Origin: Eledone cirrhosa
Lineage: Eukaryota
Assembly: GCA_964016885.1 (NCBI GenBank)
Contig: OZ024741.1
Location: 348,998,001 to 349,062,000 of the forward strand
Length of the DNA stretch: 64,000 nt
Direction of reading: 5' to 3'
Below, piece by piece: positions 33,333 to 34,100 of the stretch; position 1 is the first letter of the stretch; each line of letters opens with the position of its first letter. The translations under genes were made by a program, and so were the position numbers. Under the pieces are notes generated by a model. That model had not been told where the DNA came from and searched no databases. It saw only the letters and a program-made list of their open reading frames with translations.

Positions 33333-34100
33333 GATACATATATGTGTTCAAATCGTAAGGGACCAATCTTTTCTTGATTTATTCTTTTTTAAATAGAGTC
33401 TGGCAAACCCTACTGTTCACAGTTAGTATTTTTTTCACCTTAGCGAATCTGGTCCCTTACGATTTGAACACATATATGTATATGTCTGTGTTTATCTCTC
33501 TTTTATATTCAATTATATTACACGGTCCGGAAAAATCTCTTTCCTTGAGCTGTTTAATTGTAAGAGACTATTTTGAGTTTCTAACTCAATATATACCTTT
33601 CATATATTCGGCTCCTTGAATTTGTAGAGCTAATTTAAATGTCAAGTAAACTTGGCTGCTACTTTTAGTTGTATATGTTTATGAGACACGCTAGGTTCTG
33701 ATGCCATGTGCGCTATTTTATATACGCACACTATTCAGTCTTCTGAGATACTTAGAAGTGAAGGGTTTACTAATCTTACACCCACTAATGAGCAAAAGAA
33801 TTGGTAATTCCCTTCACTAAAATTGCGAAACAGCATTACCAAAAGCTGTCTGGGTGTCTATCAGTTGCCACAATATCTGTTTGTATTTCTTTTCTTGATT
33901 AGTTCTTTTAAATTGAGTCTGGCAAACCCTATGGTTCATAGTTAGTATTATTTTCACCCTAGCGAATCTGGTACCTTACGATTTGAACACATATATGTGT
34001 ATATCTGTGTTTATCTCTTTTATATTCAATTATATTACACGGCCCGGAAAAATCTCTTTCCTTGAGACTACTTTGAGTTTCTCACTCAATATATACCTTT
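33333..34100 (+). mobile_element. HHR element: 519-bp partial tandem unit with short inverted 5' piece, in microsatellite
   Basis: Direct repeats of about 210-235 bp (GAGTCTGGCAAACCCT at 33396 and 33915); 33333-33366 is inverted relative to about 33449-33482. Confidence 0.75.
33778..33857 (+). ncRNA. Type I hammerhead, G5A core variant, pseudoknotted
   Basis: ACACCCA-CTAATGA-GCAA..TTGC-GAAA-CAGC/ATTACCAAAA/GCTG-TC-TGGGTGT. Confidence 0.75.

Follow-up and report, generated by a model that had tools for sequence, protein, structure and literature searches.

In this study, we describe a hammerhead ribozyme motif of Eledone cirrhosa in which one stretch of loop II has two alternative partners: the 5′ flank upstream of stem I, with which it would form a long helix (helix P), and loop III, with which it would form a shorter one (helix K). 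The motif lies in a 519-nt repeat unit within a window of 64,000 nt, the whole stretch of DNA that was analysed (GenBank assembly GCA_964016885.1, contig OZ024741.1, positions 348,998,001 to 349,062,000 of the forward strand). The predicted helix K and the middle of helix P share the same bases, so they are mutually exclusive. Our preferred reading, to which we assign a probability of roughly 0.45, is that P braces stems I and II and that, in the A-G clade of subfamilies, loop III invades the middle of P, which would ease the cutting fold.

Table 1. Positions of the hammerhead, its predicted helices, and the surrounding insertion in the window
Feature	Position	Strand	Remarks
Stem I, 5′ strand	33778..33784	+	7 bp; pairs with 33851..33857
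Core CUGAUGA block	33785..33791	+	here CTAATGA, with G5A at 33787
Stem II enclosing loop II	33792..33826	+	opens with GC at 33792-33793, closes at 33825-33826; 2 conserved pairs (GC/GC), up to 4 in the subfamily; loop II 27-31 nt
GAAA block, stem III, loop III, GUC triplet	33827..33850	+	GAAA at 33827; stem III of 5 bp
Stem I, 3′ strand	33851..33857	+	partner of 33778..33784
Flank strand a, distal half of helix P	33757..33765	+	pairs with 33810-33818
Flank strand b, central and proximal portion of helix P	33767..33777	+	pairs with 33797-33807; conserved U-G pair
Loop II segment b′	33801..33808	+	two alternative partners, flank strand b and loop III
Loop II segment a′	33810..33818	+	partner of flank strand a; an A-rich linker of 4-6 nt then leads to stem II
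One 519-nt non-coding unit	33367..33885	+	predicted retrozyme monomer, permuted; no ORF of 150 aa
Partial second unit	33886..34107	+	ends at one of the family's two fixed 3′ ends, then (TA)n
Short inverted second arm	33333..33365	-	reverse complement of 33450-33481; adjoins (AG)n/(TA)n tract
Subfamily B copy in (TA)n tract	19233..19725	-	hammerhead at ~19404-19504, core CAGAAGA; helix P kept, without loop III pairing
H group type I hammerhead	13758..13872	+	sequence-distinct family, likewise with a flank-loop II helix

The element and its copies in the genome

The insertion in the window consists of 1.4 units of the 519-nt repeat (GAGTC occurs at 33396 and again at 33915), is preceded by a short inverted arm and flanked on either side by microsatellites, and holds one hammerhead only. 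A miRNA-like hairpin at 33336-33479 was considered and rejected, as it is the inverted arm of the insertion. Genome-wide, a first look gave 2141 candidate places in 3.0 Gb for subfamily A, to which the window copy belongs, and 2291 for its sister subfamily B, which is 67% identical to A; exact matches to the core pattern numbered 1276, compared with 0 for the reversed pattern.

The arms of subfamily A stop at two fixed places past the predicted cut, 185 and ~276 nt from it, nearly always at (TA)n. Two arms are found in 20 of 29 A loci, with one arm per fixed end in 12, the identical end twice in 3, and one unclassified end in 5. Measured from the cut, the pairs of fixed 3′ ends are +185/+276 in A, ~+180/+260 in B, and ~+141/+220 in H (L001-L030, L031-L060, and L141-L170, respectively), usually split one per arm in head-to-head insertions. 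The starts of the arms are scattered, the arms cross the predicted cut site, and their length can exceed one unit, with tandem arms of up to at least 3 units in B and H loci; most genomic copies carry one ribozyme per arm. No pile-up of 5′ arm ends at the predicted cut was seen in the A, B, and H loci, a sample biased to ribozyme-crossing arms. Such read-through of the cut site in DNA would fit either a circle or an uncut multimer.

By its anatomy, that of a non-coding tandem with a type I hammerhead per unit and many copies, the element is a predicted non-LTR retrozyme. It combines a partial tandem, an inverted truncated arm, and a microsatellite target, the marks of a non-autonomous Penelope-like insertion, and was likely copied into (TA)n tracts by the enzymes of a Penelope-like element. 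The H family is young, with a 450-nt unit, intact cores, and tandem trimers that are 98-100% identical (L141-L170, e.g., L158:1050-1950); its hairpin III repeats letters of the near part of helix P, and a strand swap is possible. We regard this family as the best candidate for an active element.

In the search for an autonomous partner, no sequence shared with the unit was found in 50 GIY-YIG loci (30 plus 20 fetched of 150 scored, from 10595 candidates), in 30 loci of one Nematis-like family (of 150 scored), or in the ORFs beside four loci. The sampled autonomous loci carry minimal or unclear hammerhead motifs. Penelope ORFs that neighbour some loci were inserted separately into the same (TA)n tracts, and the matches that were obtained likewise belong to separate insertions. 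Our use of the names Neptune, Nematis, and Naiad for ORFs of this genome is presumptive and follows motif likeness; a search with a short Naiad motif gave background only, with 5 matches versus 4 in the control.

Several other elements share the window. The 3′ part of a very young and abundant Penelope-like element, with many copies 98-99% identical and open frames of up to 785 aa and more, lies at 62172-63410 (+); the CTGATGA at 63248 in its 3′ UTR lacks a clear GAAA partner. Other families contribute minimal hammerhead motifs of the Penelope type at 5655, 6847, 61891 (+), and 31513 (+). A 303-nt inverted repeat at 35725-36583, 95% complementary and accompanied by CTGACGA at 36274 (+) and 35601 (-), is probably another two-armed insertion. 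Additionally, a degenerate U6 snRNA copy adjoins a (TA)n tract at 28923-29029 (-) and is the sole Rfam match (53.4 bits), and fragments of non-LTR retrotransposon reverse transcriptases are found at 14443-16942 and 52902-54755 (+), which belong to one family, and at 46977-48494 (-).

The hammerhead motif in the window copy and the family

The blocks of the motif follow the order C-G-S, which is that of a type I hammerhead and on which the permuted forms (non-circular SGC, CSG, and GCS) were rejected. The family has the nucleotides required of a type I core, namely C3 U4 G5 A6 N7 G8 A9, G12 A13 A14, A15.1-U16.1, and H17. Loop III of the window copy, ATTACCAAAA at 33835-33844, is a non-palindromic 10-nt sequence, and the cut is predicted between 33850 and 33851. 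With a 5-bp stem III and a 10-nt non-palindromic loop, subfamily A falls outside the dimer-type (double) hammerheads.

The first-pass annotation had read a perfect 7-bp stem I, a CTAATGA core with a G5A change, and a 519-nt repeat from this locus, all of which we confirmed, and had judged the change to be probably inactivating. The 30 loci closest to the window copy gave 34 rows, of which 2 are duplicates; the 32 distinct rows have a CTGATGA core in 27 cases and CTAATGA in 2. In three runs of contigs from one sample (kind unrecorded), G is the common letter at 33787. Because mutation of G5 is the means by which cleavage is abolished in the experiments of PMC10085705, the window copy is probably dead.

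In the family at large, stems I and III show double changes, with 95% of cells paired in a 26-row alignment of the A-G clade. The letters of the core and of stem II are invariant or nearly so in the 26 rows, which represent 13 subfamilies; the two invariant pairs of stem II are uninformative for covariation. An Rfam scan of the window gave no hammerhead match at the gathering threshold or at E up to 10, a miss that may be explicable by the G5A change and the long loop II of the window copy. Subfamily B has a hairpin III that is long and near-palindromic and a stem I that still covaries; since core position 4 is A instead of U (CAGAAGA) in 37 of 37 rows (L031-L060), its cutting may be weak or dispensable. 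A similar CAGAAGA also occurs where an autonomous element carries a minimal motif at its ends (L261, L262, L270, and L272).

A predicted long helix between the 5′ flank and loop II

Segment a′ of loop II, CCCTTCACT, is the exact reverse complement of flank strand a, AGTGAAGGG, a 9-bp match whose length is reached by 12 of 5000 loop II shuffles; in the 32 rows from the closest loci, at least 7 of the pairs are present in 30 and all of them in 15. The TTGGTAA of loop II also pairs with TTACTAAT at 33767-33774, with all 8 pairs in 24 of the 32 rows. This second pairing extends the 9-bp helix into one long helix and is incompatible with loop III pairing; the 9-bp helix is best described as the far half of a single predicted helix P of ~20 bp, which unites the flank with almost all of loop II. 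The two pseudoknots proposed in the first-pass annotation are therefore both real as complementarities but not independent, as the 9-bp helix is part of P and the loop III pairing competes with P. A model of two simultaneous, independent pseudoknots without a rival was rejected on the dominance of the flank pairing in the predicted fold.

We collected 227 hammerhead copies and reduced them to 19 subfamily majority lines plus single copies; helix P was tested against dinucleotide shuffles in the 24 rows that could be parsed, with 3 of the 27 rows dropped. Across these rows, P comprises 12-22 pairs over 18-25 nt of loop II, lies at its start 0-6 nt away from stem I and 1-4 nt away from stem II (9 nt in one row that parsed poorly), and has an internal loop or a mismatch near its middle in every case. 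No more than 14 of 300 shuffles match it in 23 of the 24 rows, the exception being lineage E2 (82 of 300). Counterparts of the helix with other letters occur in the H group and in one copy from a further family, and partners from the same family pair far better than partners taken from sequence-distinct families.

The automatic alignments of A, B, and C put loop II out of register by three columns; pair counts therefore draw only on 26 A-G clade rows, and anchors were used to count the distal helix. Both helices had been put forward for a covariation test. The distal register of P has 127 of 162 cells paired versus 117 on reassignment (0 of 10000 trials as good), a figure that is inflated by relatedness, and it shows G-C/A-U/U-A swaps across the A-G, B, and C family. 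The covariation score of the 6-bp core of K is reached by 57 of 500 shuffles and the whole helix is not significant. The full 9 bp of the distal part are found in A, A2, and A3 only; 4 bp form the common core, and a 2x2 loop interrupts the helix in D and F. P can thus be described as a covarying Watson-Crick helix from the stem I side to loop II, as in pseudoknot-braced hammerheads. In nearest-neighbour folding, a method that cannot model pseudoknots, P has a probability of 0.92-0.99 and K and stems I-II have 0; in prefix folding, P forms once its 3′ strand has been made and dominates the nested ensemble.

Some further hammerheads were encountered in these searches. A single copy at L082:1000-1110 (+) represents a further type I family with a 21-bp flank-loop II helix. 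Another family (L502-L521, e.g., G000:C5:39695849-39696119), retrozyme-like and with 1120 candidates, begins stem II with a U-U pair and folds loop II into a long hairpin; its flank brace is 6 bp, and its stem III is short and palindromic. This fifth family was not counted for P: a long P could be drawn in it, with chance not excluded (19 of 300 shuffles), and its flank folds on itself, leaving the 6-bp brace and a long stem II. In phage contigs, 2 of at least 120 loci with the core pattern parse as long-loop type I hammerheads, and among the matches listed neither of the two has helix P.

A possible alternative pairing between loops II and III

The other complementarity reported at the outset, between TTGGTAAT at 33801-33808 in loop II and ATTACCAA at 33835-33842 in loop III, is likewise exact at its coordinates, and a Watson-Crick match of 8 bp to loop III is reached by 2 of 5000 loop II shuffles. 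The absence of both complementarities from other copies was named beforehand as the adverse result, and they are not absent: at least 7 pairs are found in 23 of the 32 rows for K (perfect in 9), alongside the figure of 30 for the flank helix. The 30 loci were picked for likeness to the window copy, and the recurrence therefore reflects inheritance, not selection.

In a wider sample, K of at least 5 bp occurs in 8 of 16 lineages, all within the A-G clade, and in these 8 lineages at most 4% of the background windows of the unit give so long a match; it is missing from B, B2, C, and H and nearly missing from G. The duplex energy of K is -6.8 kcal/mol, compared with -4.5 kcal/mol for the rival flank pairing, whose duplex includes a U-G pair that 23 of 26 rows retain. 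In the 26-row alignment, the pair 33804:33839 is G-C in 10 rows, G-U in 8, A-U in 4, and mismatched in 0, with gaps in 4, and the rival flank pair at 33804 is broken in those 4 A-U rows. The A-U state is that of lineage E2, in which 19 of 22 rows that start with GC[CT] and have TTGAT in loop II have ATCAA in loop III, the other 3 being short-loop G copies. Among the 19 E2 rows, the flank has a mismatch in 9 and is further changed or cut off in 10; the flank pair is restored in 0. A tree built from the flanks only joins E2 to a G-U lineage (98/97). The evolution of K thus includes one compensatory path, from G-C through G-U to A-U, with the rival strand decaying alongside. Loop III also retains A(C/T)CAA while the rest of the loop varies.

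Other observations are less favourable to K. When loops III are swapped among the 16 lineages, pairing is as good in 2233 of 10000 trials; lineages D and D2 have changes that break both K and P, and kept pairs amount to 92% on the rival flank side versus 85% for K. In the C clade, TTGA in loop II goes with TCAA in loop III in 7 of 10 cases and TGGA with TCCA in 7 of 8 (by eye, in 100 of 164 matches), but these matches were rejected as support for K, as they are 4 bp only and in shifting registers.

The flanks-only tree, which has long branches and 14 open forks, places one K-bearing copy near the B/C side, and this position suggests that K is old and was lost in places. Lineage E2, in which K was retained although most of P was lost, has an intact core and reached at least 19 sampled places, so K appears compatible with an active fold. 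Conversely, B (linker of 7 nt), H (linker of 5 nt), and G all spread in the absence of K, which is therefore not required and would be at best a clade-specific accessory. The initial suggestion of an atypical loop II-loop III switch is supported for the switch-like arrangement but needs narrowing, as the pairing is clade-specific and missing in about half of the lineages; the inter-monomer contact suggested alongside it is conceivable.

These data also bear on a simpler explanation, in which P alone is the functional brace, either bent where its internal loop lies or frayed at the distal end and with the A-rich linker in its minor groove, and the loop III complement is without a role, either as a relic or as a by-product of A/T-rich sequence and local duplication. 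P is near-universal and K is not, the whole-helix tests of K are not significant, every P is interrupted near its middle, and the structure solved for a pseudoknot hammerhead (PMC11300833) has an A-rich linker engaged in a minor-groove triplex. Such an explanation is nevertheless at odds with the compensatory path accompanied by decay of the rival strand, with the retention of A(C/T)CAA in an otherwise variable loop, and with the rarity of equally long matches in the background of the K-bearing lineages, and we consider it somewhat doubtful.

Geometry and proposed mechanism

The linker that connects the distal end of P with stem II measures 5-14 nt in the majority lines and 5-7 nt in A, B, and H. 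By arithmetic on standard values, a straight P of 21-23 bp would be ~60 Å long at 2.8 Å per pair, and 6 nt span at most ~45 Å, so that roughly half of the lineages have a linker of insufficient length for the full P and stem II in one molecule. For both to be present at once, the full P would have to fray, bend, or exchange strands; combined with the early formation of P, this steric clash implies some rearrangement. Stems II and III stack coaxially with their loops pointing apart, as described in PMC4209133, and K would therefore need the loop II strand to run back by ~10 base-pair steps.

A precedent for such a course may be offered by Naiad elements. In six nematode Naiad consensus 3′ ends from the supplement of PMC8557442, we recognized by eye a 9-16-bp flank helix and a hammerhead in C-S-G order, in contrast to the account in PMC8557442 itself, according to which Naiads are without canonical hammerheads. 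In 3 of the 6, the far end of the flank helix joins the far end of stem III via 0-2 nt, and these three helices must therefore lie back along the II-III stack. If P lies back likewise, loop III would meet it ~6-13 pairs from its start, at the TTGGTAAT segment.

On the preferred reading, events would proceed as follows. Helix P would form first in transcription, its hairpin loop holding CUGAUGA together with one strand each of stem I and the 2-bp stem II. Stems I and III would then be able to form, and stem II would be blocked until P opens, frays, or bends. P may run back beside the stem II-III stack, where loop III could take the TTGG(T/A) segment from the middle of P; the freed flank strand would serve as a hinge, and with the distal 9-bp helix folded back, the short linker could extend to stem II. 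The outcome would be a delayed or conditional cut, with multimers and circles lasting long enough for reverse transcription. That a helix between stems I and II can control cleavage is documented for microbial and type-SGC hammerheads, in which its disruption and restoration turn cleavage off and on (PMC3088659 and PMC10085705).

The same geometry could be read differently, with P as an off-lock that keeps monomers and circles uncut, and cutting confined to dimers or tandems in which the other unit supplies the half comprising GAAA, stem III, and the cut site, and K docks the units. The short linker in about half of the lineages, the early formation and dominance of P in the predicted fold, and the near-palindromic hairpin III of subfamily B agree with this arrangement, and dimer-dependent cleavage is established for animal hammerheads in PMC4209133 and PMC7229834. 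However, known dimers swap at a weak stem III, and here stem III is stable at 5-8 bp; E2 spread despite having lost most of P, and most genomic copies have one ribozyme per arm, which makes this arrangement unlikely.

Another possibility is that K is an inhibitory misfold, which competes with an active P-braced form and slows cutting. The predicted stability of K exceeds that of the pairing it replaces, and the textbook fold has stems II and III coaxial and their loops apart (PMC4209133), but E2 strengthened K, lost the middle of P, and spread to its sampled places with core and covarying stems kept, and we hold an inhibitory role to be quite improbable. Finally, that the ribozyme no longer matters and the helices are handles for the Penelope reverse transcriptase or inherited relics is very improbable given the near-invariant core and stem II in 13 subfamilies and the double changes in stems I and III, even with arms that cross the cut site, a subfamily B fixed for a core change, and 8 of 9 Xenopus retrozyme dimers reported as uncleaved in vitro (bioRxiv 10.64898/2026.07.22.740005).

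Comparison with known ribozymes and retroelements

In natural hammerheads, tertiary contacts have been described between stems I and II, and loop III has been treated as passive or as a dimer arm. A helix of the stem I side with loop II is a kind of brace already known, on which rapid cleavage depends in microbial and type-SGC hammerheads; what would be unusual here is its length, and K would be the new point. Our literature search found no natural hammerhead with a loop II-loop III helix and none with a flank-loop II helix of ~20 bp, although the supplements of the closest papers may hold long flank helices.

Metazoan non-LTR retrozymes, as portrayed in PMC7229834 and bioRxiv 10.64898/2026.07.22.740005, resemble the element in having a non-coding, low-GC tandem unit with one type I hammerhead each, thousands of dispersed copies, and Penelope-like elements alongside. 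The unit of 519 nt compares with 170-400 nt in PMC7229834 and 51-972 bp in the 2026 bioRxiv survey. Unlike the metazoan retrozymes of these accounts, the present hammerhead has a 2-bp stem II, a 27-35-nt loop II, and a stable stem III with a large loop, and its ~20-bp flank-loop helix replaces their usual contacts between loops 1 and 2. Retrozymes are expressed as linear and circular monomer RNA, and the present element is described from DNA. The window insertion, with one hammerhead, falls short of the two hammerheads by which bioRxiv 10.64898/2026.07.22.740005 recognizes an active element.

Among ribozymes, the pseudoknot-braced hammerheads of types I-III (PMC3088659 and PMC11300833) likewise have a Watson-Crick helix that ties loop II to the stem I side, and their stem II can be as short as 1-2 bp; the helices described there are 4-6 bp, compared with 12-22 bp here, where there is also a competing partner in loop III. 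In types SGC and CSG (PMC10085705) and in the C-S-G forms of Naiad, a strand before stem I pairs with a strand after stem II, as here, and in type SGC the flank helix is needed for cleavage according to PMC10085705. The present motif differs from these permuted forms in its ordinary C-G-S order and longer helix; contact with the distal end of stem III, covalent in the Naiad forms, would here be made by base pairing through loop III. Penelope-like insertions as described in PMC8557442 share with the element partial tandems, an inverted 5′-truncated arm, and a preference for (TA)n; the dimer-type hammerheads of Penelope-like elements are minimal (PMC4209133), whereas the hammerhead here is large and the unit has no ORF.

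We also tentatively propose a broader view, held with less confidence than the preferred reading itself. The element would carry a natural hammerhead in which a Watson-Crick contact between loop III and loop II arises by branch migration into a two-turn flank helix, giving a three-strand switch that times the self-cleavage of a retroelement. The contact would be the base-paired counterpart of the covalent link in Naiad, and one clamp scaffold would serve the C-G-S, C-S-G, and S-G-C ribozymes of the Penelope type.

Implications

The genome offers a natural mutational series for this system, with lineages of the G-C, G-U, and A-U states, lineages with and without the loop III complement, and linkers of 5-14 nt. 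If the preferred reading is true, K would tune when the RNA cuts, as an accessory of the active fold, and an exchange between loop III-loop II pairing and a long brace would add a new mode of hammerhead regulation. It could then explain how retrozyme RNA spares itself as a circle yet yields monomers.
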